A DNA stretch of 64,000 bases, taken from contig NC_086097.1 of assembly GCF_963921235.1 (NCBI RefSeq), positions 67,458,001 to 67,522,000 on the forward strand, given 5' to 3'. The position numbers and the translations under genes are program-made. This DNA comes from Mobula hypostoma. Taxonomy: Eukaryota. This document shows, in pieces, positions 2,652 to 60,812 of the stretch. Each line of letters opens with the position of its first letter. Position 1 is the stretch's first letter. The notes beneath the pieces were generated by a model that did not search any database, was not told the DNA's origin, and saw only the letters and a list, made by a program, of their open reading frames with translations.

Positions 2652-3695
2652 AACACACATCAAAGTTGCTGGTGAATGCAGCAGGCTGGGCAGCACCTCT
2701 AGGAAGAGGTACAGTCGACGTTTCGGGCCAAGACCCTTCGTCAGGACTAACTGAAAGAAGAGCTAATAAGAAATTTGAAAGTGGGAGGGGGAGGGGGAGA
2801 TCCAAAATGATAGGAGAAGACAGGAGGGGGAGGGATGGAGCCAAGAGCTGGACAGTTGATTGGCAAAAAGGGATATGAGAGGATCATGGGACAGGAGGCC
2901 TAGGGAGAATGAAAAGGGGGAGGGGGGAAAACCCAGAGGATGGGCAAGGGGTATAGTGAGAGGGACAGAGAAAAAGGAGAGAGAGAAAAAGAATGTGTGT
3001 ATATAAATAAATAATGGATGGGGTATGAGGGGGAGGTGGGGCATTTGCGGAAGTTTGAAAAGTCAATGTTCATGCCATCAGGTTGGAGGCTACCCAGACG
3101 GAATATAAGGTGTTGTTCCTCCAACCTGAGTGTGGCTTCATCTTTACAGTAGAGGAGGCCGTGTTTCGACATATCAGAATGGGAATGAGAAGTGGAATTA
3201 AAATGTGTGGCCACTGGGAGATCCTGCTTTCTCTGGTGGACAGAGCGTAGGTGTTCAGCGAAACGATCTCCCAGTCTGCGTCGGGTCTCGCCAATATATA
3301 GAAGGCCACATCGGGAGCACCGGACGCAGTATATCACCCCAGCCGACTCACAGGTGAAGTGTTGCCTCACCTGGAAGGACTGTTTAGGGCCCTGAATGGT
3401 GGTAAGGGAGGAAGTGTAAGGGCATGTGTAGCACTTGTTCCGCTTACACGGATAAGTGCCAGGAGGGAGATCAGTGGGGAAGGATGGGGGGGAACGAATG
3501 GACAAGGGAGTTGCGTAGGGAGCGATCCCTGCGGAATGCGGGGGGGGGGGGAGGGAAAGATGTGCTTAGTGGTGGGATCCTGTTGGAGGTGGCAGAAGTT
3601 ACGGAGAATAATATGTTGGACCCGGAGGCTGGTGGGATGGTAGGTGAGGACAAGGGGAACCCTATTCCTAGTGGGGTGACGGGAGGATGGAGTGA
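2652..3695 (-). mobile_element. Penelope-like retroelement, 5'-truncated: GIY-YIG endonuclease plus pseudo-LTR
   Basis: ORF 2900-3505 contains PCKRNKCYTC...GVIYCVRCSRCGLLYIGETRRRLGDRFAEH...HFNSTSH (GIY-YIG with Cys/His motif typical of PLEs); RVPLVLTYHP linker in an adjacent frame. Confidence 0.92.
2712..2749 (-). ncRNA. Minimal type-I hammerhead ribozyme motif in the PLE pseudo-LTR
   Basis: Minus strand reads TAGTC-CTGACGA-AGGGTCTTGGCCC-GAAAC-GTC-GACTG: CUGANGA and GAAA core, GUC cleavage triplet, stem I AGTC/GACT, palindromic ACGT stem III. Confidence 0.8.
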
Positions 3696-5829
3696 GGACA
3701 TCTTCAAGGGATGGTGCTTCAAGAAGGCGGCATCCGTCATTGAAGACATTTAGCATCCAGTACATGGGCTCTTCTTATTACTACCATTGGAAGATCATCG
3801 GTGAAGAAGTACAGGAGCCTGAAGTCACCTAAATGTTTTAAGAACAGTTTCTTCCCTATCACCATCGGGGATGGTAGTGTTCATGACCACTACCTCATTA
3901 TTTGTCTTTGGCATTGCTGTCGCAAAACAACAAATTTCATGACATGCCAGTGATAATAAACTTAATTATAACTCTATGACCTTCTATACTCCATGTCAGG
4001 GATTAGATCTTTTTGGATGTCAATGCCATTCTGTGAGATCAGCTCCAATGCTGTGCTTGGCCATGCTGAAATATTGGAAGTGAGATTCTCAATGCAAGAC
4101 CCAGCTAGGTCTATGCTGAAGGTGTATGGGTGTGCAGCCAGTGTTTGGGGAGCAGCGGAAGATGTGGCTGCATCAGTTATATACCCAAAATGCATATTCT
4201 GAAGTTTTGAAATTATAACAGTTATTACTGGAAATGCAGCACTCCAGACAGTATCTGTGAAGACATTAACAGTGTTGAAAGGAGGAAATTTGGAGGGCTT
4301 TGGTCAGCTGGAAGATGGAAAGGTATCTAATTTACATGGAACAAGGATCCTTCAAGATTTAATAGAGGCAGGATAGAGTTGGTTACTGATGGGGTGGAGG
4401 TTAAAAGTTAGGGTTGTAACCAAAGTGTTATAAAGAGAAAAGTTATTTGAAACTTTGGTTGTTGAAGTTGTATGCCTTCATTTTAGTGACATTTTCTTTT
4501 TCTTCTTTGATAGATTTGGACAGCGGCTGCTCAGGTTTCCTGCAAATTCTGAGAGTTGGGAGACAAATAAGATTAAATTGATAGGATAAGATCACAGAAA
4601 GAATCACTAAGAAATGAAGCAAGGCTAAATATTAATTAAGCATGAAAGGTGCAGCCCTAAATCTAAGACGTTAACTTTGTTTCTCTTTCACTGATACTGC
4701 CTGACCTGCTGAGTATTTTCCACATTTTCTGTTTTAAAAACATCTGCTGTTACTTTTTGTACTTGTAATTTCACTCCATCACAACTTTCATGCCATTTGC
4801 TACAAGTAATTTCGAACTCTAAACATCTCTAAATGGTTATAGTTCACATAATAAAGTGCAAATGTATTGCCTTTTGAGGTACTTTTTTAGGAAACAGTCT
4901 ATCTTTTTATGCATTTAAAAAATTTTTTTAATCAGGAAAGGTGAGGACTAAATTAAAGGAGGATGTAAACAGCAATAGAATAAGTAGTTTTAACATCTAA
5001 GTTTTAAAAGATGGTTGAAGAAATAACCACCGAGTGGAGAGCAAAACAATGATGGTTCAAAGCAATGTGATGACAGGTCAAGTAATTGTACAAAAATTAG
5101 ATCTATATACGTGTAAATGGTCACAGCAGAATGCAAGAATCAGAGATAAGTTGTTAATTACTCTCATAGGACATTCTATCAGGCTTTTCTTTTGTCCCTT
5201 TCCAGCCCATTTTGTTTGGCACTGCATACAATTCATAACTACTATAAAATTCAGCTGCATAGGTGAGGCTGGGGTTTTGAGGGAGTTGTTGGGCACAAAT
5301 TGATTCCAATATTGTATCTAATGCATACACATATTGGTATTTGTGACGTATATTATATCAGATGCCACATTGCTGATCCAATTAGCTAAAGCGTGCCAGC
5401 AAAGAGTAGGCACGTTGTCATGTCAACCAACATTGAATGCTGCTTTGTTGTCAGCATAACCATTTTAGATGTCTGTGGTGCAGCTAATTGATTCTCCTTG
5501 CCTTGCTGAACATATATGCAGCAGCATGAACAACAGCCACCATATGCTATTTAAAAGGATTATCAGCTGGTTGCAGGCTAACTTCTGATTAATTTCTGTT
5601 AACTATAATTCTAAAACTTCTTGGAGCACTCTGGAGTTGATATTGTCCTGTGAAAGTATGTTATTGAGAAATAAAAAAATATTACTCCGGTCTCCCTATA
5701 CATGCAGGAATTCACCCCTATTTTATACCTTCTGCATCATAATCTTTGTGCTCATTTTCAGTATCCGTCAAATCTTCCCCCTTCATTCTTTGAAAATTAA
5801 ATGTGCTTTGTGGGTAAAGAGAAGGTCGT

Positions 5830-17944: not shown

Positions 17945-20060
17945 TTATTTGATGAAGTCTCTCAGCCTGAAGTATCGACTGTTCATTTGCCTCCGTAGAA
18001 ACTGCCTAACCTCTTGAAGGTTAATTAATTAATTAATCAATCAATCAATCAATCTTTTCTAACCCTTTTGAAGGCTAGAGCTGCGGCTTTTAGGTCCGGG
18101 GATACCAGTTGCTACACGGAATCCAAGCGTGCACTCTGGAAAGCAATTAAGGGCGCCAAGGGGCAATATTGACCCAATTTGGAAGCCCAGACTAACCAGA
18201 GGGATGCAGGTAGACTACGGCAAGATTTAAATGAGATCACTGGGTGCAAAGAAAGGGCTGGGAATATCAATTACTGTGGCGCTTCTCTTCCTGACGAACT
18301 TAACGCATTCTACGCGAGATTTGAACAGAACAGGAGCGTCCTGCTCCCTCTGGATGAACCGGACCTGGTGGCATCGAGATTCATCGTCACCAAGGAGGAT
18401 GTTAGAAGGGCCTTCCTGAAGATAAATCCAAGGAAGGCGAGGGGCCCAGATGGCATTCCGGGACGGGTTCTCTGGGCCTCTGCAAGCGAGCTAGCTGGAG
18501 TGTTTGCTGACATCTTCAACTGCTCCTTGCTTCAGTCTAAGATCCCCTCGTGTTTTAAGAAGGCAACGATAATCTCGGTGCTGAGGAAGAGTAAGGTGGC
18601 ATGCCTGGATGAATATCGACCTGTGGCTCTGACATCAATTGCTATGAAGTGCTTTGAGCGATTGGTTATGGCACACATCAACCACAGCCTACCAGTCACC
18701 CTTGACGCTTTGCAGTTTGCCTACCAGAGCAACAGATCAATGGCAAATGCCATCTCTCTGGCCCTACATTCCTCATTAGAACACCTGGAGAATAAAAACA
18801 CATACGTAAGGCTCCTCTTCATTGACTACAGCTCTGCCTTTAATACCATAATTCCAAATAAACTGATTCCTAAACTCCAGAACCTGGGTCTTTGCACTCA
18901 GATCTGCAGCTGGATCTTCAACTTCCTCACAGCCAGGACCCAGGCTGTAAAAATAGGGGACAAGCTCTCCTCTACAATCACTCTGAGCACCGGTGCCCCA
19001 CAAGGCTGTGTACTCAGCCCCCTGCTGTACTCGCTGTACACCCATGATTGTGTAGCTAAGTTTACATTAAACTCAATATATAAGTTTGCTTATGACACCA
19101 CAATTGTAGGCCGTATCTTGGGTAATGATGAGTTTGAGTACAGAGAGGAAATTAAGAACCTGGAGGCATGGTGCGAAGACAATAACCTATCCCTCAACGT
19201 CAGCAAGACCAAGGAATTGGTTGTTGACTTCAGAAGGAGTAGCAGACCGCACAACCCAATTTACATCGGTGGTGTGCAAGTGGAACAGGTCAAAAGCTTT
19301 AAGTTCCTGGGGGTCAATATCACAAATGACCTGACTTGGTCCAACCAAGCACAGTCCACTGCCAGGAAGGCCCACCAGCACCTTTACTTCCTGAGAAAGC
19401 TAAAGAAATTTGGCCTGTCCCCTAAAACCCTCACTAATTTTTATAGATGCACCGTAGAAAGCATTCTTCTAGGGTGCATCACAACCTGGTATGGAAGTTG
19501 TCCTGTCCAAGACCGGAAGAAGCTGCAGAAGATCGTAAACACAGCCCAGCACATCGCACAAACCAATTTTCTGTCCTTGGACTCACTTTACACCGCATGC
19601 TGTTGACAGTGCTGCCAGGATAATCAAGGACACGACCCATCCAGCCAACTCACTTTTCGTCCCTCTTCCCTCCGGGAGAAGGCTCAGGAGCTTGAAGACT
19701 CATACGGCCAGATTTGGGAACAGCTTCTTTCCAACTGTGATAAGCCTGCTGAACGGATCCTGACCCGGACCTGGGCTGTACCCTCCAAATATCTGGACCA
19801 GCCTCTCGGTTTTTTTTTGTACTACCTTATTTTCCCTTTTCTATTTTCTACTTACGATTTATAATTTAAATTTTTAATATTTACTATTGATTTGTACTCC
19901 AGGGAGCGTGAAGCACGGAATCAAATATCGCTGTGATGATTGTACGTTCTAGTATCAATTGTTTGGCGACAATAAAGTATAAAGTATAACCTGCTAAGTT
20001 TCTCCAGTACTTCGTGTGCTAGCTGTTCAAGATTACTAGCATCTGCCAAACCTTTTGTTA
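17945..20060 (+). mobile_element. Old PLE-pLTR-derived short repeat (pieces ~17945-18012 and ~19987-20060) split by the Rex1 insertion
   Basis: The halves join as ...GAAACTGCC-TAACCT-GCTAAGTTTCTCCAG..., resembling the PLE pLTR 3' end; TAACCT is duplicated at 18007-18012 and 19987-19992. Confidence 0.65.
18013..19986 (+). mobile_element. Rex1/Babar non-LTR retrotransposon, 5'-truncated; RT ORF 18179-19606
   Basis: [48 protein letters not shown]; catalytic FADD is mutated to FAYD; AATAAA and (AAAGTAT) tail; TAACCT TSD. Confidence 0.95.
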
Positions 20061-40299: not shown

Positions 40300-40847
40300 A
40301 CTACATTCCACGTTTTTCTCTAAATAACACGCCGCCATCCTGATTTTGGTATTTATCACCATGTCCTCATCCTGCCAATGTCTAAATCCAGGAAATTTCA
40401 GTCGAAAAACAGCGGGCGGGAATAGCTTCATCCTAAAACTACATTGATTTAAGATTATGATTGTTCATCACCTTTGCTAGACAATCAGGGAAGAACAATA
40501 ATCAGTATTAATTTTGCCAGTGACTCCCACGACTAGTCCACGGATTTAATGAAGCACAACTATTCGTTTCCGAAAATAAATTGGTCACATGTCCAAGAGT
40601 ATAAATAAGAACAGCGTGGTGCAAATCCAGCGCAGTAATATACTTTCTGATAAGTATAACAAAACTTTTATTTAGCAATAACTCTGACAACTTCATGGAC
40701 TCGTCTATAGCGGGATGGCAGAAATCGTTTTAAAGGTTCGAACCAATGGAAAATGTTTCGAAAGCGCGTGCACGTATTATAAAGCGAAGGTTGATTCGGC
40801 TATGCAATATGCTTGACTTTAGAACGAATCATTGGGAATAGTTGAAT
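40300..40847 (+). promoter_or_regulatory. Putative promoter of exon 1A: GC box, CCAAT, inverted HRE dyad, TATA box
   Basis: GGGCGG 40414-40419; CCAAT 40743-40747; GCGTG-CACGTA 40766-40776; TATAAA 40778-40783, 70 nt before ATG 40848; CpG density rises sharply here. Confidence 0.7.
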
Positions 40848-42197
40848 ATGATGACACGGTTTGAGGAATGTAAAAAACAGCAACAGCAGCACGGTGGACG
40901 CGTGCAGGCGCGGCTGCAACCCGAGAACAGCTCGCGGCACCTCGACAGCTCCGAGCAAGAGGCGGCTGCGTGCACGCGCACCAGGTTCGAGGAAAAGCAG
41001 CCAGCGCAGGGTCGGGACTGTTTGAAGACCAACACAAATCTATTTGACTTTGGCGTGTCGGACTCTATGCTCCCTTGGCTAGAAAAGGGAAACGGAACTG
41101 CACAATGCAAACGAGTAAGTGACACGGAGCCAGCGAGTTTACCGGAGACTTGTTATCATGCTTCTGAAGTGAAAAACATGGAAAATAAACCCGATACCGG
41201 AGCCCACGATGCGGACACCACGCGCCAACTGAGACAGGTCGCTGCGGAACCTTACAGCGGCACGAGCGGGATTCGACAGCTCGCGCAAGGTGACAGCGCA
41301 GGCGGGTCGGTTACGGAACCTGACCGCGCGACTGAACTCGAACGGCTGTTTGTGCGAGCCGGCGGCGCGAGCGGGCTGGTGGTGGGACGCTCGGGGGCTC
41401 CTGACAGTTCGGGAAGCTCCAGCGCCAAACTATTCAGTGAGCTTGACAACTGCGAGGGCGGGAGCGCGCCCCCGGCAAACTGGGATTGCACGGAACCACC
41501 ACGCAAACGCCTGTGTTCCCAAGCACTCAACAAACACGCGGACATGTCGTTTGACACGTACAGCACGAACTCTCCACATGCCAGCACGGTTCGCAGTATT
41601 CCACTGGTGCCAACCCAAATGCCAACAATGCACGGAGATTCTTCTTTGGACCCCATGAATAAACTTCTCAGTGACAGCTCAAATAGTTTAGAAAATGACA
41701 AACTGAAAAGAAATGCAGATAGCGAGGATGAAGTACCAAAATGCTCCAAGGATATCTCGAATAACCAAGTAAAATGTGATTCACAGGTGGTATCTGATAC
41801 CTTGAATAAACATCGTTGCCCTAAAACAGCAACCAATAAAAGAATCAGTTTATCCAGGCTGGTGTTAGAGCACATAGCACCTTGTATGAATCAATACGGC
41901 TTATGTTTTGTAGATGACTTCCTGGGGCACAAAATTGGTGACAAAATATTACAAGAAGTCATTGCTCTTCATCAGAGTGGCAATTTTGAGGATGGAGCGC
42001 TGGCAGGTCAGAGTACCAATTCAGATAAAGAATTAACTGCTTCAACCAATAAAACAATTCGTGGCGACAAAATAATGTGGGTGCAGGGTACTGAGCCGGG
42101 CTGTGCATCTATAGGACAACTTCTACAGAGAATGGATAAACTTATATTGCATGCAGATGGGAAATTTGGGCACTACAAAATTAGAGGAAGACACAAG
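40848..42197 (+). CDS. HIF prolyl hydroxylase (EGLN/PHD) long first coding exon 1A: low-complexity N-terminus plus PHD1/PHD2-like N-half of the catalytic domain; probably an alternative first exon of egln3
   Basis: 450 uninterrupted codons; LVLEHIAPCMNQYGLCFVDDFLG...IRGDKIMWVQGTEPGC...GHYKIRGRHK aligns with PHD2 [23 protein letters not shown]...IRGDKITWIEGKEPGC...GSYKINGRTK; ends at AAG|GTTAGT, the conserved EGLN intron position. Confidence 0.9.
40860..41640. other. CpG island over the 5' part of exon 1A
   Basis: Dense CG dinucleotides and high GC in an otherwise CpG-depleted, AT-rich window. Confidence 0.8.
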
Positions 42198-43364
42198 GTT
42201 AGTAGCCAAAATTATATAAACCAGCATGAAAGCATTGAATACATATTTTACAAAATTAACATGTTTGATTTCAATAACAATAATGTCATGATAGTGATAA
42301 AAATTGTTCTTTTGCATTAAGTGCTCTTTAAGAGCTTTTAAAATACACTGTTACCAACAATCCAATAAAATTATCTAATATTAAGAATTATTGGCTAAAC
42401 TAGAAAATAGTACATGAGGAAACAAATTCATATACATGATTGAAAACAGTTTTCTTAACATGTAGAAGGTTCATTGAACATTAACAGATATTAATTTGCT
42501 TTTAGTTGTAAATTTATGATTTTCAGGTGAAGATTTGCTCCATATGAATTAAAAAGGGTAGCAATTTGTGTTCTCTTTTTATCTCTGGACTTTGATCTGC
42601 TAATCCAGGAATAAAACATAGGCATGAATGGGAAGAACCACAATACTATTGAAGAAATAGAAATTCTAGCTCTGAAAATCATTATATTGTATGAATTCTA
42701 CATCTTTGAACAGCAGCTTATCCCCAGAGTAACAAGAATCAATATTAGAGCTGAGATGCAAAAGGTGGGAGGGTTCCATCATTAACCAAGTAACAACAAT
42801 GACACAAAAGCAAAATACTGTGAACGCTGGCAATCTAAAATAAAAATGGGAAAATCTGGAAATTCTCTGCATGTCAGGCAGTATCTGTGGAGAGAGAAAT
42901 GCAATCAACATTTCAATGATCCTTCGTGAGCTGAAAAGTAACGAAAGATTGTTGTGAAGACTGAAGGAGACAGGGTGAAAAGTTTGAGCAGGAGCTGAGA
43001 ATTGGGGGATGTAAACTCCCAGCATCATGGTGTGAGAAAGAGTAATAGATGGGATGCAGCATGAATTAGGAAGAGAACACTGCAATCATAAGCTAAATGA
43101 GAGGGAAGATTATAACACTAGTTCACAAACAAGAGAAAATCTGCAGATACTGGATTTATCTTGCCATTAGTTATTTAGCTTGCCAATTATATCAGGATAC
43201 TCATAGAAGTATAGTCAGTGTTTGATACTGAGTTGTGTTTCTGGTCAAAGAGGTTAGTTTTAAGGAGTGTTGTAAAGTTAGAGAATAAAATGAGGAAGAA
43301 AGGAATAAGGGAGATGGAATTCCAAAACCAAGACAGCCCAAGACAAGACTCTAATAGTAGGATT

Positions 43365-48770: not shown

Positions 48771-48917
48771 ATACTGTATATCTGTCACACCATATCCACA
48801 ATTATGGTGCAAATGTAACCTGAATCCAGAAGATATATTGTATGGAGGAGTCTCATTCTGTTCCACAATGGAGTGATTTTAGGTGCTTTGTACCATATTT
48901 TATATGGTGCTTTGTAG

Positions 48918-50295
48918 TAGGGATAGTCCGGGTAATTATAGACCAGTGAGCCTCACGTCTGTGGTGGGAAAGCCATTGGAAAAGATTCTTAGAGATAGGA
49001 TCTATAGGCATTTAGAGAATCATGGTCTGATCAGGGACAGTCAGCATGGCTTTGTGAAGGGCAGATCGTGTCTAACAAGCCTGATAGAGTTCTTTGAGGA
49101 GGTGACCAGGCATATAGATGAGGGTAGTGCAGTGGATGTGATCTATATCGATTTTAGTAAGGCATTTGACAAGGTTCCACATGGTAGGCTTATTCAGAAA
49201 GTTAGAAGGCATGGGATCCAGGGAAGTTTGGCCAGGTAGATTCAGAATTGGCTTGCCTGCAGAAGGCAGAGGGTGGTGGTGGAGGGAGTACATTCAGATT
49301 GGAGGATTGTGACTAGTGGTGTCCCACAAGGATCTGTTCTGGGACCTCTACTTTTCGTGATTTTTATTAACGACCTGGATGTAGGGGTAGAAGGGTGGGT
49401 TGGCAAGTTTGCAGACGACACAAAGGTTGGTGGTGTCTTAGATAGTGTAGAGGATTGTCAAAGATTGCAGAGAGACATTGATAGGATGCGGGAGTGGGCT
49501 GAGAAGTGGCAGATGGAGTTCAACCTGGAGAAATGTGAGGTGGTACACTTTGGAAGGACAAACTCCAAGGCAGAGTACAAAGTAAATGGCAGGATACTTG
49601 GTAGTGTGGAGGAGCAGAGGGATCTCGGGGTACATGTCCACAGATCCCTGAACGTTGCCTCACAGGTGGATAGGGTAGTTAAGAAAGCTTATGGGGTGTT
49701 AGCTTTCATAAGTCGAGGGATAGAGTTTAAGAGTCGCAATGTAATGATGCAGCTCTATAAAACTCTGGTTAGGCCACACTTGGAGTACTGTGTCCAGTTC
49801 TGGTCACCTCACTACAGGAAGGATGTGGAAGCACTGGAAAGGGTACAGAGGAGATTTACCAGGATGCTGCCTGGTTTAGAAAGTATGCATTATGATCAGA
49901 GATTAAGGGAGCTAGGGCTTTACTCTTTGGAGAGGAGGATGAGAGGAGACATGATAGAGGTATACAAGATAATAAGAGGAGTAGATAGAGTGGATAGCCA
50001 GCGCCTCTTCCCCAGGGCACCACTGCTCAATACAAGAGGACATGGCTTTAAGGTAAGGGGTGGGAAGTTCAAGGGGAATATTAGAGGAAGGTTTTTTACT
50101 CAGAGAGTGGTTGGTGCGTGGAATGCACTGTCTGAGTCAGTGGTGGAGGCAGATATACTAGTGAAGTTTAGGAGACTACTAGACAGGTATATGGAGGAAT
50201 TTAAGGTGGGGGCTTATATGGGAGGCAGGGTTTGAGGGTCGGCACAACATTGTGGGCCAAAGGGCCTGTACTGTACTGTACTATTCTATGTTCTG
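48918..50295 (+). mobile_element. Young 5'-truncated CR1 LINE in the intron between exons 1A and 1B
   Basis: NYRPVSLTSVVGK, IDFSKAFDKVPH, GVPQGSVLGPLLF, KFADDTK; a single in-frame TAG at 49237-49239 splits the RT; CTATTCTATGTTCT tail. Confidence 0.95.
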
Positions 50296-51299
50296 TATTT
50301 ATACCAGATAAGAACTAGAACAATAACTATTATTCCAGTCAATTCCAAGGTGCATTATCAACTCAAGAATGATGCTTAGACAATGGAAAACTAATCAAGA
50401 CCATGGTCATTTTGGATGCTTTAAATGAAGGTGGAGAAGGGAGGCATAAACATTGATGAGTTAATGTTGCTGTTCAACTTAGTTTAAATGCACAGTTAAG
50501 TAATGATCTTATGTTCTTCTATTACACACATCACATAAACAAAAATTATAATTTTTTTTAAAGGTTATTAATGAATATTTCTCCTGTTTTTACTGTTGAA
50601 AAAGACATGAAGGCTTCAAAACTAGAAAATGATTTTGAGAAGTTATATTAGTGCTTAAGTTCATACATTATTAATGAAGCAACATAATCTTTAACTAATA
50701 ATTAACATACTGGAACATATTTGGTCAGCGAATCCATTGTTTTCCAGATATGCCGTATTTGCCTCTCATTCCTTAATTGGTCAAAAGTATGCTACTTTTA
50801 GTAAGTCATTCCGTTATAAACGAACAACAGAAATTGGAATAGGCCATTTGGCCCATAAGCTTGCTTTGTATTTGGGTATTTCTGAAAAGGCTTAATTAAA
50901 TTAATAATTAGATTTCAAACGATCACATTAAAACTATAAGATATACTCAGCTAGTTAAACGCCCTGAATAGAGGGCAACTGATGTAACGTTTCAAATTAT
51001 GACAGCTTATCAGAACTTGAAAAAGTTAAAGATAATCAAATGGGAAGGAAAAAATAAAAGTTTCATGATGATGTGGAAAGCAAAAGTTAAACAATGAAAT
51101 ATATATTGCTGTAAAGTGAAATAAAACTTAAATGTTTCTTCCTTCACCTTTCCGTGCCAGTCAGAATCACCAAGAAAAGTGACATTAATATGGCGAGGTC
51201 GTTGAATAATTCGCTTATTTTGATTGAAGAAATGACTAATATGGGGAATTTTGCACTACTGGGAGACTGGATGGAGGGGGTATTGTTTTTATCCACCTA

Positions 51300-51663
51300 T
51301 CTGATTGCTGTGCAAATCGACGCGATATTGCCTACATGCTGCGCTGGGATTCCTCAATGGCGACGAGGGCTGGGCCTACCCACAAATGTTCCCGGCACCT
51401 CCCACTCGCACACTGGGCACGTCGCATCTAGTGAGTAATGGCACGTCCCCCGTTCTCTGGTTTGAAGTAGTCCAGTGCGCAGCTGCCTTTAATTCCGGCG
51501 ACGTGGGTGGGTAGATCGGCGCCGAAGTGAGAAGGTTTTTGCGACCTATCTGGCTATGAGTAAGAAGCGGTTTATGAATTAACAAACATATCAGGTGGAA
51601 TCCCCGGTCAAAAGTTTCTTCAAATTGGCGACACATTCGACAAATAGCAAAAAATATAGCAGG
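51300..51663 (+). promoter_or_regulatory. Putative CpG-rich promoter/5' UTR of exon 1B with clustered HRE cores
   Basis: CACGT at 51418-51422 and 51442-51446, ACGTG at 51501-51505; local CpG enrichment. Confidence 0.65.
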
Positions 51664-52002
51664 ATGTTTTCAGACCTTGAGAAGCTGGCGAAAGAGTGTA
51701 TCGTACCTCGTTTAAACGAACATGGTTATTATTTCATTGACAACTTTTTGGGAAGAATGATCGGCGATTGTATTTTTGAAGAAGTACGAAATTTGCATTT
51801 TGTTGGAGAGTTACGGGATGGACAGTTGGCTGGTCGGAGAACTGGTTACTCCAAAAGACACCTGCGGGGTGACCAAATTGCATGGATCAGGGGCTCCAAA
51901 GACAATTGCAATGCAATAGACTTCCTTCTTTCATCACTTGATAAACTTGTAATGCTTTGTGGAGGGAAGTTGGGACATTATAACATAAAAGACAGATCTC
52001 AG
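51664..52002 (+). CDS. egln3: EGLN3/PHD3 first coding exon (1B)
   Basis: MFSDLEKLAKECIVPRL...IDNFLG...LRDGQLAGRRTGYSKRHLRGDQIAWI...YNIKDRSQ aligns with PHD3 [15 protein letters not shown]...LDNFLG...LRDGQLAGPRAGVSKRHLRGDQITWI...YYVKERSK; perfect donor CAG|GTAAGT. Confidence 0.92.
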
Positions 52003-53274
52003 GTAAGTTATCACCAACATTTGGCATTAGGCACGTCACACTTGATAAGAATTTGCTTTACTTAGTTTGACTAAGTTAGTAAGTATAGGTTATATTATTG
52101 AATTAGGTCAAACGTATCGGGTACTATCAGCAGATTTTTCAGCTCCAGCTTCAGAAGTTGACTTTTAAGAGTTATTTTCTGTATATTTCAGAATACTGTC
52201 AATTCAGTTTCTCTAATAATTGGTAGTGTTCTTTATTAGTTTACTTTGATAATTTAACAGTTTACTTTGAAGTTTCTTGGTTTTGAGTTTTAGTTGAGAA
52301 GAATGTACCATATCACAGCATCACAGTAAGTTAATGCTATTTTGCAAGCAACTTAATTGACGTGTATTTCTTCTAAAGTGCAAAATATCTTTAGCATAAT
52401 ATTTCCAGATCATGGTACTGCTAGCTATTTCATAGCTGCTGATTAGTTCAAAGTTTGTTGTGTTCTGGTTTGCTAGTTTAAATGTTCTGGGGGAGAGATT
52501 CTGCCATTGTGAATCAAAACAATGCTTTATGAATTGATTCCAAGTACTAGTAGCTGAAGTTTAGGGCCTTCATCTGCCCAAGGACCAAATTTAGTAATTA
52601 TTGCCATAAGTTACTCCACTCAGTTGCACTTGCCTCTTTTAAGGCATTTTTAAAAAATCTACCTACCTGATCAAGCCATCCTTATGTGATGTGCTGTCAT
52701 ATTTCGTTCATACCTTAATGTTTATACAACATTAATTGTGCCATTTAAACAATGCTTGTTCATTGTTATCGAATAGGTTAAGATTGTAGAAGGCAGTTGA
52801 GCCAATCATGATTTTTAAAAGACTGGACTTCTTAAAATGCATCATTTGTTTGGATTGTCTTTGAAAATCACCTTCGATATCTGGGTGAATTTGGATTAAA
52901 CTGTATGTGGTACCTTGAGAGTAGAGATGGGTGTGGAAGGTAGTTCTTCCATGAATGGCACACAGACATCCTTTGATGTTGGATGTGTTGATATAATTTT
53001 GGGTGGTTTTAGCATTGCTGAGTTCAAGGTGCCAAATTACAGTTACCAGCTTTAGTTTAATCAGGACTAATATCTACAGTTCATTTCCAAGAAGGAAGTA
53101 TGTTGTTATGTTACCTGAACAGGATGTTCATTTGTTAGATATCTATGTACTGATAATGTTCATAGGGCCCCTTTTGAATTGTGTAAACCCAATTTTAAAT
53201 TGCACTGGTCGTGCTCCTTCCATGATGACATTTTCAAAGCTGTAAGATGGCCATTTGAGATCCTATTCACTGTT

Positions 53275-54248: not shown

Positions 54249-54985
54249 TCAATAATAAGCAAATGCTTTGAGAATCTGGTCGAGGACGACATCTGCAGCT
54301 TGCTGCCACCCACATTGGACCCTCTACAGTTCGCCTACTGACAAACAGATCGATAGACAATGCAATAGCCACTGTTCTATAATGTCCTTACACATCTGGA
54401 GAAGAGGGATGCTTATGTGAGAATGTTGTTCTTGGACTACAGTTCAGCATTCAACACCGTAATTCTGTCTAGACTCGACAGGAAGCTCAGAAACCTTGGC
54501 CTTGACCCTGCCTTGTGCAGCTGGATCCTGGACTTCTTGTCAGATCGCCAGCAAGTGGTAAGAGTGGGCTTCCTCACCTCTATCCCTCTGTCTCTCAACA
54601 TAGGAGCAGCTGAGGGCTGTGTACTAAGTCCCCTCCTTTACTCCCTGAAAACCCATGACTGTGTCACTATCCTCAGCTCTAATCTGCTAATTAAATTTGC
54701 TGACGATACTACATTTATTGGCCTAATCTTAAACAGTAACGAAGTGGCCTACACAGAAGAAGTCAACTCTGACGCAGTGGTGTCAAGAAAACAGCCTCTC
54801 CCTCAATGTCGCAAAAACAAAGGAGCTGGTTGTGGATTACGGGAGGAATGGAGACGGGTTAACCCCTATTGACATCAATGGATCTGGAGTTGCGAGGGTA
54901 AACAGCTTTAAGTTCCTCGGCATCCACATCACTGAGGACTTCACTTGGTCTGTACACACCAGCTGTGTGGTGAAAAAGGCACAAG

Positions 54986-56400
54986 GACTGAGGGTATGAT
55001 TGTGTTGAATGCTGAGCTGTAATCAATAAACAGCAGCTTTACGTAGGTATTGCTATTGTCTAGGTGATCCAAGGCCGAGTGGAAAGCCAGTGAAATTGTA
55101 TCTGCTGTAGATCTATTGTGGTGATAAGCAAATTATAGCAGGTCCAGGTCCTCACGTAGGCAGGAATTGATTCTTGCCGTGACCAACCTCTCTAAACGTC
55201 ATACCAGATAAGGAGTGCTACTGGGTGACTTATTGAGGCAGCCTACCCTGCTCTTCCTGGGCACTGGTATGATGGTCGTCGTTTTGAAGCAGCAGGGAAC
55301 CTCCGATTTCAGCAGTGAGATATTGAAGATGTTCTTGAACTCTCCTCCCAGTTGGTTGGCACAGGTTTTCAGAGCCCTTTCGGGTATACCAGGGCCTGAT
55401 GCCTCGTGCGGATTCACCCCCTTGTAAGACGTTCTGATGTCGGATTTCAAGACAGAGATCACAGGGTCACCAGATGCTGCTGGGATTTGCACAACTGTAG
55501 TTATAGTCTCCCTTTCAAAGTTTGCATAACAGATGTTGAGGTCATCTGGGAGTGAAGCATCACTGATGTTCATGATGCTAGGTTTCACTTTGTAGGAAGT
55601 GATGGCTTTCTACAAAGCCAGAGCTGACGTGCATCCAAATCTCTCTCTAACCTCAAGTGGAATTTTTTTTTTTCACTCTTAAAGTAGCCTTCCATAGGTC
55701 TTACTTGTACTTTCTGTATAGTTCTGGATCACTAGTTTTGAATCTGCAGATCTACCCCTCAGCAGACTTCAATTCTCCTGGTTCATCCACAGCTTTTGGT
55801 TTGCGTATATCTGGTATATTCTCCAAGGCACACACTCATCCACACAGGTCTTGATGAAGTCAGTGACAACTCTGCTGTACTCATTCAGATTTAAAGATGA
55901 ATACCTGAATATTGTCCAGTTCACTGACTCAGAACAGAACAGTCCTGTAAACGATTATACGCCTTCCTTGATCATACCTTCTCAGTGCTCATCCCTGCTG
56001 CGGTCTTTAGTCTCTGCCTATATGCCGGGATCAGAAGTGCTTTCTAAAGTGTGGGTATTGGATGGTATGGTAAGGGTTCTTAGTGATGGTATAACAGTGC
56101 TTAAGTGTGGTTCCACTGGTAATGTGCTGGTGGTAGTTGACAGACTTCTTCAGGTTGGCTTGGTTGAAATCCTATGCAATGATAGGGAGAGCATCAGGGT
56201 GCTTTTCTGTGCCTGCTGATTACGGTGCTCAGCTCCTCCAGTGCCTGCTTGGTGTTAGTCTGAGGTAGAATATACACTACCAGGATGATATCGGAAAATT
56301 CCTTTGGCAGATAAAATGGACAACGTTTGACCACTAGATGTTCCAGATCTGTTGAGCAGGACTGAGACAGAACCATTGTATCTGTGCACCACAAGAATAT
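54986..56400 (-). mobile_element. Decayed Rex1/Babar endonuclease-to-RT fragment
   Basis: DLEHLVVKRCPFYLPKEFSDIILVVYILP (APE); SLPDDLNICYANFE...LKTCANQL...CFKTTTIIPVP. Confidence 0.85.
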
Positions 56401-57204: not shown

Positions 57205-60200
57205 ATTTTTTTAAATACTTTATTTTCAAAATTTTCAAAAAAAATCAACAAAAACGTACCAACTCAGACATGTATAAAAAAGAAATAAATAAAAAGAAAG
57301 ACATAACATTAGAGGAATGCCTATTGTACAAAGTGCTCAAAAATACTAAACATTAAGCTGGGGGGGAAGTTGCTCATCCACCCCCGGCCTCGGCCAGGTA
57401 GGCAAGAAATAGATCCCAGATAGCCGAAAATTTTTTAATTGAATTGGTTCTCAAGAACCTAAGTTTCTCCATTTGTATGACTGAGATCATATCAGCCATC
57501 CATCTCCGAAAGGAAGGGGGAGAGAGTGATTTCCATTTCCTCAAGGTAAGTCTTTTGGCAACAATCATCCCCAGCATCAGAGACTGTTGTATGGCTGCAG
57601 GGAAACAAATAGTAGATTGCGAGCAGCCAATTATAGCGAGACCAGCTTCCAAGGGAAAGGATCTTTTATAGGCCTTTGAGTACCAGTGGAATATTTTGGA
57701 CCAAAATTCAGTCAGTAATGGGCAAAACCAAAAGGTGTGTGACAACGTAGCTTCCATCCCTTGGCATCTATCACACATTGGCGAGACAGAAGGGTAAATC
57801 CTGTGCAATCTAAGTTTAGAGTAATGGAGACGGTGGACAACTTTAAACTGGATCAGTTGGTGCCTGCTGTTAACAGAGCAAGCCTGTATCATAGACAAAC
57901 ACTTATCCCAGGCAGTTTCAGATAATTCAATGCCCAACTCCTCTCTCCAGGCGTCTCTAATCTTCACAGTAGATGCTACAGTGCAATTATCAAACAAACG
58001 TACAAACTTAGAAACGAGATGCCTGGAGTCAGGAGGGTTCTTTAAAATATCAAAAAAAACATATGTTTCCCTGGAAGGATTTCAAAATTACGAATCTTTG
58101 ATTGAATGTAGTGTCTAATTTGCAAATAATGAAAAAAGTGCGAATGAGGCAGCTCAAATTTCTTTTCCAGCAGACTAAATGTTGCAAACCGTCCCTCTAT
58201 GTACAGGTCTTCAGTAGAAACTAGACCCTTCTCCCTCCAAGCATGGTAGGTTTTATCTAACCATGAGGGTAGAAAGGAGTGATTGAAACAGATTGGTGTT
58301 TGTACAGAGGTCTCTGGTAAATTCAGAACGCTCCTAATCTGATTTAGAATTCTGACGAAATTTTTCAAAACAAAACTCAAACTTTTTGAACTTCCAGGCC
58401 CCTCTAACTTGAAGAACAGCATGGCTGGCAAGGAGGAATTGACAACAGAGTTGGACTCCATACATAGCCACAAGGGAGCCCCAGGGGCTAGGTTATCCGG
58501 AGTCCCCTGTTGCCAAAACATTAAAGCCCTAGCAAAGACAGCCCAATAATAGTGTCTAAATACAGGTAATTCCAGCCCTCCTTCAGACTCGGGCTTTTGT
58601 AAATGAATTTTCGAAATTGTGTGATTCTTATAATTCCAGATATAAGACAATATTATGGAGTCCAACTCTTTAAAGAAAGCTGATATAAGAAAAATGGGGA
58701 GATTTTGACAAAGATAGAGAAACCTAGGAAGGGAAACCATTTTAATTGAGTTTATACGACCAATCATGGACAGAGGTAGGGTTTTCCAACTTTCTATATT
58801 CTGTTTAAGTTTTGAAACTCGGCGAAGTTTAATTTGAATATTAATTTAGGATCTTTGGGGATTATCAAGCCGAGATAAGTAAAATGATCTTTAACCACTT
58901 TGAACGGGACAGTTTCCAAAAAACCCTGCGTGTAGTCGTTGGAGAGGGGCACAAAGTCACTTTTTGTCCAATTGATTGAGTATCCCAATATTCTGCCAAA
59001 AGAGGTGATTAAATCTAGAAGAGGGACTGACTTTTCTGAGTTTTGTAAGAGTATCACATCGTCAGCATATAAACTAATAAGTGTTTCAATACCTCCCACT
59101 TGCAAACCCAGAATATTTGGGTGACTTCTTATTTTTAAGGCAAGGGGCTCAACCGTGACGGCAAAAAGGGCCAGCGAGAGAGGGCACCCCAGCTGGACTG
59201 AACGGTGTAGGGGAAACAGAGTTGACTTGTCACCATTAGTTATAATACAGCACATTGGGCTGGCATATATCAGTTTTACCCAAGATACAAATGACTCGCC
59301 GAACCCAAACCTGTACAGTGACTCAGACATGTAAGGCCATTCAATCTGGTCAAAAGCCTTTTGTGCATCAAGGATAAAATTGCTGCCCCATTAGCTTTCC
59401 CATGATCAGCATATATAGTACTAAGGAGGCATCTGACATTGGAAAAAGAGAACCTACCCGGGACAAACCCTGTCTGATCAGGATGGATAATAACCATATA
59501 ACAATTTCAGCGTGGAAACAGGCCATCTTGGCCCTTCTAGTCCATGGCGAACTCTTACTCTCACCTAGTCCCATCGACCTGCAGTTAGCCCATAATCCTC
59601 CATTCCTTTCCTGTCCATATAGCTATCCAATTTAACTTTAAATGATAACATTGAACCTGCCTCAACCACTTCTGCTGGAAGCTCGTTCCACACAGCTACC
59701 ACTTTCTGAGTAAAGAAGTTCCCCCTCATATTACCCCTAAACTTTTGCCCTTTAACCCTCAACTCATGTCCTCTTGTTTGAATCTTCCCCCTCAATGGAA
59801 AAAGCCTATCCTCGTCAACTCTATCTATCTCCCTCATAATTTTAAATACCTCTATCAAGTCCCCCCCTCAACCTTCTACGCTCCAAAGAATAAAGACCTA
59901 ACTTGTTCAACCTTTCACTATAAGTTAGGTGCTGAAACCCAGGTAACATTCTAATAAATCTCCTCTGTACTCTCTCTATTTTGTTGAGTCATCATCTCTT
60001 TAGTATAGTCCGGGAAGATCAAGACCTTGTTTCCCTTGTACTGCATGGGTTGTAGTCTGCTGCGGTGCAGGATCAGCTCTTACACTTGAAAGTGATGGAT
60101 ACGTGCCAAGATGGTGCGCGGTTTCCTGCTGGCAGCCGGCTTCAGATAGAGAGAGTGATGCGCATGATCGACTTTAACCGGATATGGGAAATGCTCTTCT

Positions 60201-60812
60201 CCGAACAACTTGGGAATCAGTCTGGAAACAAATTCAGTGGGATTACCATCCTCCTCACCCTCTTGTATCCCTACAATCTTAATATTATGTCTCCGGGAAC
60301 GAGCCCCTAAGTCATGCACTTTAGCTTCAAGCTGGCTATTTTGTCTCATTAGCTCTGAATACCTAACTTCAAGCTCTTGCACCGGTGTTTCAAGGTCACT
60401 GGTGGTTAGTTCTTGATTAGCCACACGGGCTTGTAAGTCAGCCTGGGAGGCCCCAAGTGCCTCAAACTTGGTCTCAGAAACACCAAAGCGGTCGTTAATG
60501 CCGTGCAGAATTGACTCAGAAATCTCCTGACCTAATTCCTTGCACATGGCCTAAGTTTTATCGGGCGGTATCTCAGACGCGGAGAAGTGCTTTACCGACC
60601 CGTTGTTAGCACTAACTTCGGTAGTTTGGCAGTCGGCGGTCTTGGCCTTATTTGCCTTCGGCATTGTCAAACCTTTCCAGACACTTCGTTTAGACATACA
60701 CTGTTGGCCTATGAATGAATAGAACACGGTATAATAGTAATTTTATCGAGGCCTCGGAGAGGAGCACTGATCAAATGCGTCTAATCCATACGCATGTGCA
60801 CTAGCGCCCCCC
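57205..60812 (-). mobile_element. L1-clade LINE with both termini and a TSD, internally deleted and carrying a nested CR1
   Basis: ORF1 ARSRRHNIKIVGIQEGEE...KPRTILAR; RT IIHPDQTGFVPGR, GCPLSLALFA, SLYADDV; C-terminal CDRC...HTFWFC; G-rich 5' end; A-rich tail; TGAATTATT at 57196-57204 and 60813-60821. Confidence 0.92.
59491..59986 (-). mobile_element. CR1 3' fragment nested in the L1
   Basis: IEVFKIMREIDRVD...FFTQKVVAVWNELPAEVVEAG. Confidence 0.9.

Follow-up and report, generated by a model that had tools for sequence, protein, structure and literature searches.

A conserved long finger loop in the alternative catalytic first exon of EGLN3 (PHD3) of cartilaginous fishes

Judged by identity to annotated proteins, the 64-kb window (the whole stretch of DNA that was analysed) is the devil-ray (Mobula hypostoma) EGLN3/PHD3 locus, with two alternative first exons that we term 1A and 1B. 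In our preferred reading, which we hold with modest confidence, the finger loop of 1A is a substrate lid lengthened by an old chondrichthyan insertion; 1A is likely to be better than 1B on NODD, and the insertion is likely to tune the lid rather than to set specificity.

The coding part of exon 1A (40848..42197, forward strand) comprises 450 codons, which encode the N-half of the catalytic domain preceded by a long N-terminal region, and it is followed by a phase-0 donor GT at 42198. Its product is identical at 450/450 residues to EGLN3 isoform X1 of the same species (XP_062906242.1), and that of the coding part of exon 1B, the canonical PHD3-type first exon (51664..52002, forward strand, 113 codons, phase-0 donor GT at 52003), is identical at 113/113 residues to isoform X2 (XP_062906249.1); it is these matches that identify the locus. 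Motif scans and tblastn found none of exons 2–5 anywhere in the window, neither between 1A and 1B nor after 1B, and 1A is therefore not followed by exons of its own ahead of 1B. The metal-binding half, common to both isoforms, is encoded outside the window, and no neighbour of EGLN3 was identified within it. A separate promoter for each first exon is suggested by the CpG-rich stretches in which 1A and 1B each begin, namely 40500..41750, a likely promoter with an o/e of 1.06–1.33 (the window maximum, against a window median of 0.23), and 51000..52000, likely the second promoter, with an o/e of 0.78–0.98.

Several other elements of the window were noted. The N-terminal region of 1A contains a basic motif, PPRKR (41496..41510, forward strand), which is kept as P-x-RKR in 15/16 elasmobranchs in an otherwise divergent region; we take it to be a candidate motif of the nuclear localisation signal type, and isoform 1A may go to the nucleus. 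Four RCGTG cores, presumably motifs of the HRE type, lie around exon 1B (51418–51506 and 52032) and many more lie in the CpG-rich exon 1A, both being raw occurrences with no chance control. Retroelement-like ORF fragments, of reverse transcriptase or endonuclease type by eye, are found at 18173–19606 and 48883–50235 on the forward strand and at 2900–3774, 54369–55609 and 57374–60550 on the reverse strand, and the segment at 48.8–50.4 kb has a very high repeat depth in contigs.

Both first exons are expressed, in contigs of presumed RNA type. In 4/4 runs, which come from two studies, were picked because they contain 1A, are presumed to be RNA and in three cases may underlie the annotation, one contig lies over 1A and one over 1B, and each ends at its own donor plus exactly 27 further letters. 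The 1A contigs begin at 40621, 40665, 40644 and 40638 in the respective runs and all end at 42198, while contig cover in the flanking intron bins is at or near zero. In two runs the junction letters of 1B, read by eye, give AMVACYPGN, the start of the shared C-half, and 1B is spliced to exon 2. We infer that 1A joins the same exon 2, its junction being deduced and not read, because exons 1A and 1B end in the same 2 nt, the contigs were presumably built with k = 31, and 2 + 1 + 27 = 30 is the overlap expected of two 31-mer unitigs converging on one node. Furthermore, the 120-aa C-halves of the annotated isoforms are identical within species in 5/5 pairs (Pristis, Chiloscyllium, Hypanus and both Mobula), a sixth pair involving an isoform with an extra exon. 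The contigs and these pairs together bear out the proposal of a first-pass annotation, made from the letters of the window, that the two isoforms share the metal-binding half.

On translation, 41991–42068 reads DG-ALAGQSTNSDKELTASTNKT-IRGD, with 20 residues between the two anchors, and 51817–51873 reads DG-QLAGRRTGYSKRH-LRGD, with 13. The 1A loop, between beta2 and beta3 (41997..42056, forward strand), has a net charge of 0 and a variable middle (~42012–42047) that contains the chondrichthyan insertion, and the 1B loop (51823..51864, forward strand) has four Arg/Lys and zero acidic residues and precedes a Leu that occupies the Ile251 position of PHD2. PHD2 has 12 residues at the same place, with an 8-residue gap against 1A in the alignment; translation and alignment confirm the three lengths as first stated. 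The DGAL that was noted in 1A in place of the usual DGQL is also present, but it is not remarkable, the same position in 73 other 1A loops being E in 28, A in 18, Q in 15, K in 10 and V and R in one each. Across 130 further PHD-type representatives, two of which were mis-parsed (lengths 5 and 9), 126 loops have 11–16 residues, one has 18 and one, that of chimaera 1A, has 23.

The 1A loop spans 20 residues in 8/8 batoids and 23 both in 8/8 sharks and in the chimaera Callorhinchus. The 92 non-chondrichthyan sequences among 105 distinct 1A halves have 12 residues in 87 cases, 11 in one, 13 in one and 14 in three, and the chondrichthyan loop is 8 to 11 residues longer than that of the bony vertebrates compared. 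EGLN1 loops have 12 residues in 26/26 cases and 1B-class loops have 13 in 37/40, the 40 including two that were wrongly classed or parsed. A single 3-aa deletion is the sole loop indel in 17 chondrichthyan species; the check proposed at the outset, loop length across chondrichthyans, hence revealed no free variation. By parsimony, 11 residues were probably gained in the chondrichthyan stem and 3 lost in batoids. Between rays and sharks the identity is 77% over the whole loop and 70% over its middle, as against 53% for the N-terminal region of 1A and 86% for the core; among 199 overlapping 20-residue windows of the N-terminal region none reaches 77%, six reach 70% and 35 keep a stable length in both. 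When elasmobranchs are compared with chimaera, identity is 28% in the loop middle and so does not exceed that of the N-terminal region (31%). Given that the middle is 28% identical to chimaera but 70% identical between rays and sharks, the alignments indicate that the length of the loop is old and stable and that its sequence is constrained in elasmobranchs only.

1A-type halves were detected in chondrichthyans, bichir, sturgeons, gars, bowfin, many teleosts, lungfish, caecilians, axolotl, turtles and squamates. Among the matches listed (120 of 403), none of the named proteins with 1A came from a mammal, bird, crocodilian or frog, and repeated losses in these groups are possible. Some gene models fuse the two exons into a single protein, with 1A in front of 1B every time, and others name a lone 1A 'egl nine homolog 1-like', both being sources of mis-annotation. 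In the shared C-half, outside the window, the Phe of LRIFPEG seen in sharks and bony vertebrates is Ala or Val in batoids.

The first-pass annotation had also read a small internal duplication into two STN tripeptides of the ray 1A loop. Both are present (42012–42020 and 42042–42050), but the resemblance between them is at chance level and missing from 8/8 sharks, and a recent tandem micro-duplication was rejected. When the 60 nt are shuffled, an exact 6-nt repeat turns up in 21% of cases by codon and in 27% by base, and a repeated tripeptide appears by chance in 6% of shuffles; the two Ser codons, AGT and TCA, are from different families, and STN is present twice in just 5/8 batoids and 0/8 sharks. 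Most species have STS in place of the first STN, and the second owes its existence to the deletion in batoids. An ancient 11-codon duplication in the 1A loop is possible, with a weak hint in its favor. The shark loop can be set out as a pair of 11-mers, the first with S-D-K and the second with S-N-K at its end. In a profile test of the insert against 68 twelve-residue 1A loops (7 placements), which was devised post hoc and applied to shark sequences that are not independent, the shuffle p was 0.002–0.054 in 6/7 sharks, 0.07–0.17 in Mustelus and 0.02–0.72 in chimaera. The self-similarity of the loop at lag 11 is 0.68, not above that at lag 12 or 14.

By domain, fold and iron triad, both isoforms are probably EGLN/PHD HIF prolyl 4-hydroxylases. 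PF13640, taken as the mark of the 2OG-Fe(II) double-stranded beta-helix domain, is above cut-off in both (Pfam), and the iron triad and the 2OG Arg (H136, D138, H197 and R206 of the annotated isoform, encoded outside the window) are invariant in the alignment. The AlphaFold model of the 1A catalytic domain (pTM 0.80) keeps the PHD2 fold, with a TM of 0.83 to 5L9B, and the Foldseek top 50 are all PHD2. However, AlphaFold says nothing on the insert, because loop pLDDT is <50 in 1A (56–74) and equally in the 1B control (55–67). The MYND zinc finger (PF01753) is absent from the annotated isoform, and Pfam detected no family in the 450-aa 1A product. For want of this N-terminal finger the assignment of 1A to EGLN1/PHD2 was rejected, and 1A is 'PHD2-like' in resemblance without being a member of EGLN1. 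An assignment to EGLN2/PHD1 was likewise rejected, the EGLN2 rows (seven, of which name or cluster verifies three) forming their own group (93/89) without 1A. In the best N-half tree, for which the loop middles were removed and seven outgroup rows were used (five invertebrate by name, two assumed), 1A and 1B are sisters (93/86, unstarred), with a stem of 0.73 for 1B versus 0.19 for 1A; the AU test rejects neither 1A+EGLN1 (p 0.27) nor 1A+EGLN1+EGLN2 (p 0.20). With the 1A junction as deduced above, 1A would be an EGLN3 orthologue, having exon 2 onward in common with canonical PHD3 exon 1; the C-half tree places EGLN1 separately (support 94/96). A Pristis protein named 'egl nine homolog 1' groups with EGLN2 and has an odd loop start, R/K-V-V-S-P; with this alteration in the sawfish EGLN2-group protein, a second chondrichthyan PHD lid is also changed.

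The PHD2 loop closes over the LXXLAP motif, and Val241, Ser242, Lys244 and Ile251 of PHD2, together with the off-loop Ile280, Arg281, Ile292 and Gly294, shift ODD preference (PMC5007464). The NODD and CODD complexes of PHD2 differ chiefly at 243–250, the very segment that holds the insert in 1A. The published PHD2 kcat/Km values for CODD/NODD are 46.1/13.6 in wild type, 28.5/1.7 in I251L, 17.7/1.7 in R281L and 42.3/7.6 in S242G (PMC5007464), which gives CODD/NODD ratios of ~3.4, 17, 10 and 5.6, respectively; PHD3 L73I raises NODD hydroxylation from <10% to 25–30%, and G294E brings NODD down by 20–25% (PMC5007464). At the Ile251 position 1A has Ile (42057..42059, forward strand), which is NODD-permissive in PHD2/PHD3 mutants (PMC5007464), and its further selectivity positions (42144..42188, forward strand) are Ile280, Leu281 (PHD3-type), Ile292 and Gly294 in PHD2 numbering. 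The eight positions read A,G,S,I,I,L,I,G in 1A (four PHD2-type, three PHD3-type and one neither), where the Ser at PHD2 Lys244 hinges on the placement of the insert; PMC10952196 uses another register for PHD3. In 1B they read A,G,R,L,V,M,I,D, five being identical to PHD3. Of the PHD3 set Ala62, Gly63, Arg65, Leu73, Val102, Leu103, Val114 and Glu116, 1A has 3/8 (Ala, Gly and Leu103), and on this residue set it was rejected as a PHD3-type CODD-selective enzyme.

These differences extend beyond the ray. Position 251 is I in 100, V in four and Y in one of 105 1A halves and never L, and it is L in 29/40 1B-class halves; position 294 is G in 102/105 1A halves and E/D in 35/40 1B halves. The rule is not universal, since ten 1B-class halves, teleost-like by sequence, have Ile251 and the chimaera 1B has Gly294. 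From the published effects of PHD2/PHD3 mutants at the residues that 1A and 1B carry, 1A is predicted to be intermediate, still CODD-preferring and more NODD-competent than 1B, and 1B is predicted to be CODD-selective like mammalian PHD3. The loop net charge, which is 0 in 16/16 elasmobranch 1A and 6/7 EGLN1 loops and +3 on average in 24 1B loops, agrees in kind with this prediction. It should be noted that residue counting may mislead, because mutant effects are non-additive, S242G/K244R/I251L being less CODD-selective than I251L alone (PMC5007464). The earlier suggestion that the isoforms differ in substrate range stands as far as the residues go, in that they differ at those governing NODD versus CODD in PHD2 mutants, and is a prediction as regards function. 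This contrast would be independent of the insert, because bony-vertebrate 1A keeps Ile251 and Gly294 with a 12-residue loop.

The insert probably falls between the equivalents of Gln243 and Ile251, which would keep both anchoring ends of the lid, and it most likely modulates lid opening and closing; the available portion of PMC13151054 describes simulations that link this movement to minor O2 routes. It is fairly unlikely, in our estimate, that the insertion is only a spacer, tolerated where the loop tip is exposed to solvent and of no real catalytic effect, with the isoforms differing via promoters, N-terminal region and point residues. Such a spacer would fit the 28% identity of the loop middle between chimaera and elasmobranchs, the loss of 3 residues in batoids, a Ser/Thr content of 35–43% and the same two-exon system in bony vertebrates that have no insertion, but it sits poorly with a middle 70% identical between rays and sharks when the N-terminal region has 53%, with one indel in 17 species, and with the location of the insert in the stretch where the NODD and CODD complexes diverge. 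We hold it decidedly unlikely that the extra length is itself the main switch giving 1A another substrate range or O2 kinetics than 1B: the loop does enclose the substrate and is a selectivity element, molecular dynamics route some O2 through or past it, and the shorter loop of Trichoplax PHD has been proposed to be more rigid, yet the determinants that have been mapped are individual residues, which lie at the ends of the loop or beyond it, and 87/92 non-chondrichthyan 1A halves have 12 residues and nevertheless Ile251/Gly294.

S/T-x-x-D/E is the CK2-type consensus, and at least one such motif in 16/16 elasmobranch loops, all 16 with net charge 0, raises the idea that in cartilaginous fishes the insert is a regulatory segment, phosphorylated or bound by a partner, through which the lid is turned on or off. 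We regard this as very unlikely, as the motif is short and common in Ser/Thr-rich sequence, its count has no chance control, and the chimaera loop lacks it. That 1A is a remnant of a separate gene or an annotation artefact rather than an EGLN3 isoform is scarcely credible: some gene models do leave 1A alone or name it 'egl nine homolog 1-like', and its junction is deduced, but the contigs end at the 1A donor with the same 27 extra letters as at 1B in 4/4 runs, the C-halves are identical in 5/5 same-species isoform pairs, and the open frame is kept from rays to lizards.

Beyond the preferred reading of a tuned lid lies a bolder one, which we put forward tentatively and think doubtful, namely that most non-mammalian jawed vertebrates have a fourth HIF hydroxylase inside EGLN3. 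Here 1A would be the slower-evolving, NODD-competent half and CODD-selective PHD3 its fast-evolving tandem duplicate, and the chondrichthyan 1A lid, the longest among the PHDs sampled, would have been doubled by an 11-codon duplication and have a distinct O2 or ODD response. If true, the two isoforms would amount to a naturally occurring exchange of half an enzyme over a single catalytic core, and 'phd3-null' alleles that hit exon 1B in fish would not truly be null. The choice between NODD and CODD by PHDs is only partly defined, and two N-halves on an identical C-half, with loop lengths of 12, 13, 20 and 23, make the roles of length and of single residues separable. Studies of hypoxia in fish that target 'phd3' by qPCR, antibody or knockout may cover one isoform only. 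The zebrafish 'phd3-null' is, in the part of PMC10724695 available, an 8-bp deletion in exon 1 of a 243-aa protein. By length this is the 1B form; other cyprinids have 1A, and by analogy with them a 1A isoform may survive in the mutant.

Canonical vertebrate EGLN3/PHD3 (239 aa) is the same gene as the ray locus and has a 13-residue loop like 1B, which compared with its selectivity set is identical at 5/8 positions, similar at two (Met, Asp) and PHD2-type at one; however, it has no upstream first exon of the ray type that re-encodes the whole catalytic N-half. The variants of human PHD3 listed in the section of PMC3963164 available to us carry a deletion within exon 1 or lack exon 4, and rat SM-20 is an N-terminal extension. 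The finger loop of PHD2/EGLN1 resembles that of 1A in its anchors (G-x-L and IRGD), in Ile251, Ile280, Ile292 and Gly294, and in being neutral, and 1A differs from PHD2 in the absence of a MYND finger, in 20–23 rather than 12 residues in 1A-type loops, in Ala241, Gly242, Ser244 and Leu281, and in the replacement of Gln239. Both isoforms are already annotated as automatic RefSeq models. The RefSeq/UniProt 'EGLN3 isoform X1' models of non-mammalian jawed vertebrates, themselves automatic, are 1A-type, with loops of 11–14 residues in 92/92 cases outside chondrichthyans; we found no functional description of them. In the literature covered, which takes in few subscription papers, we found no account of an alternative catalytic first exon of EGLN3 or of the chondrichthyan loop. 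Two alternatively spliced PHD3 transcripts, both induced by hypoxia, have been reported in the cyprinid Megalobrama amblycephala (Chen et al. 2016, PMID 26697748, as cited in the part of PMC8772553 available). From that brief mention they may be the 1A/1B pair, and would differ from the ray in that a teleost 1A would have a 12-residue loop. Set beside these known systems, the long 1A loop is a real, conserved and apparently undescribed variant of a known enzyme element, with a function that is predicted.
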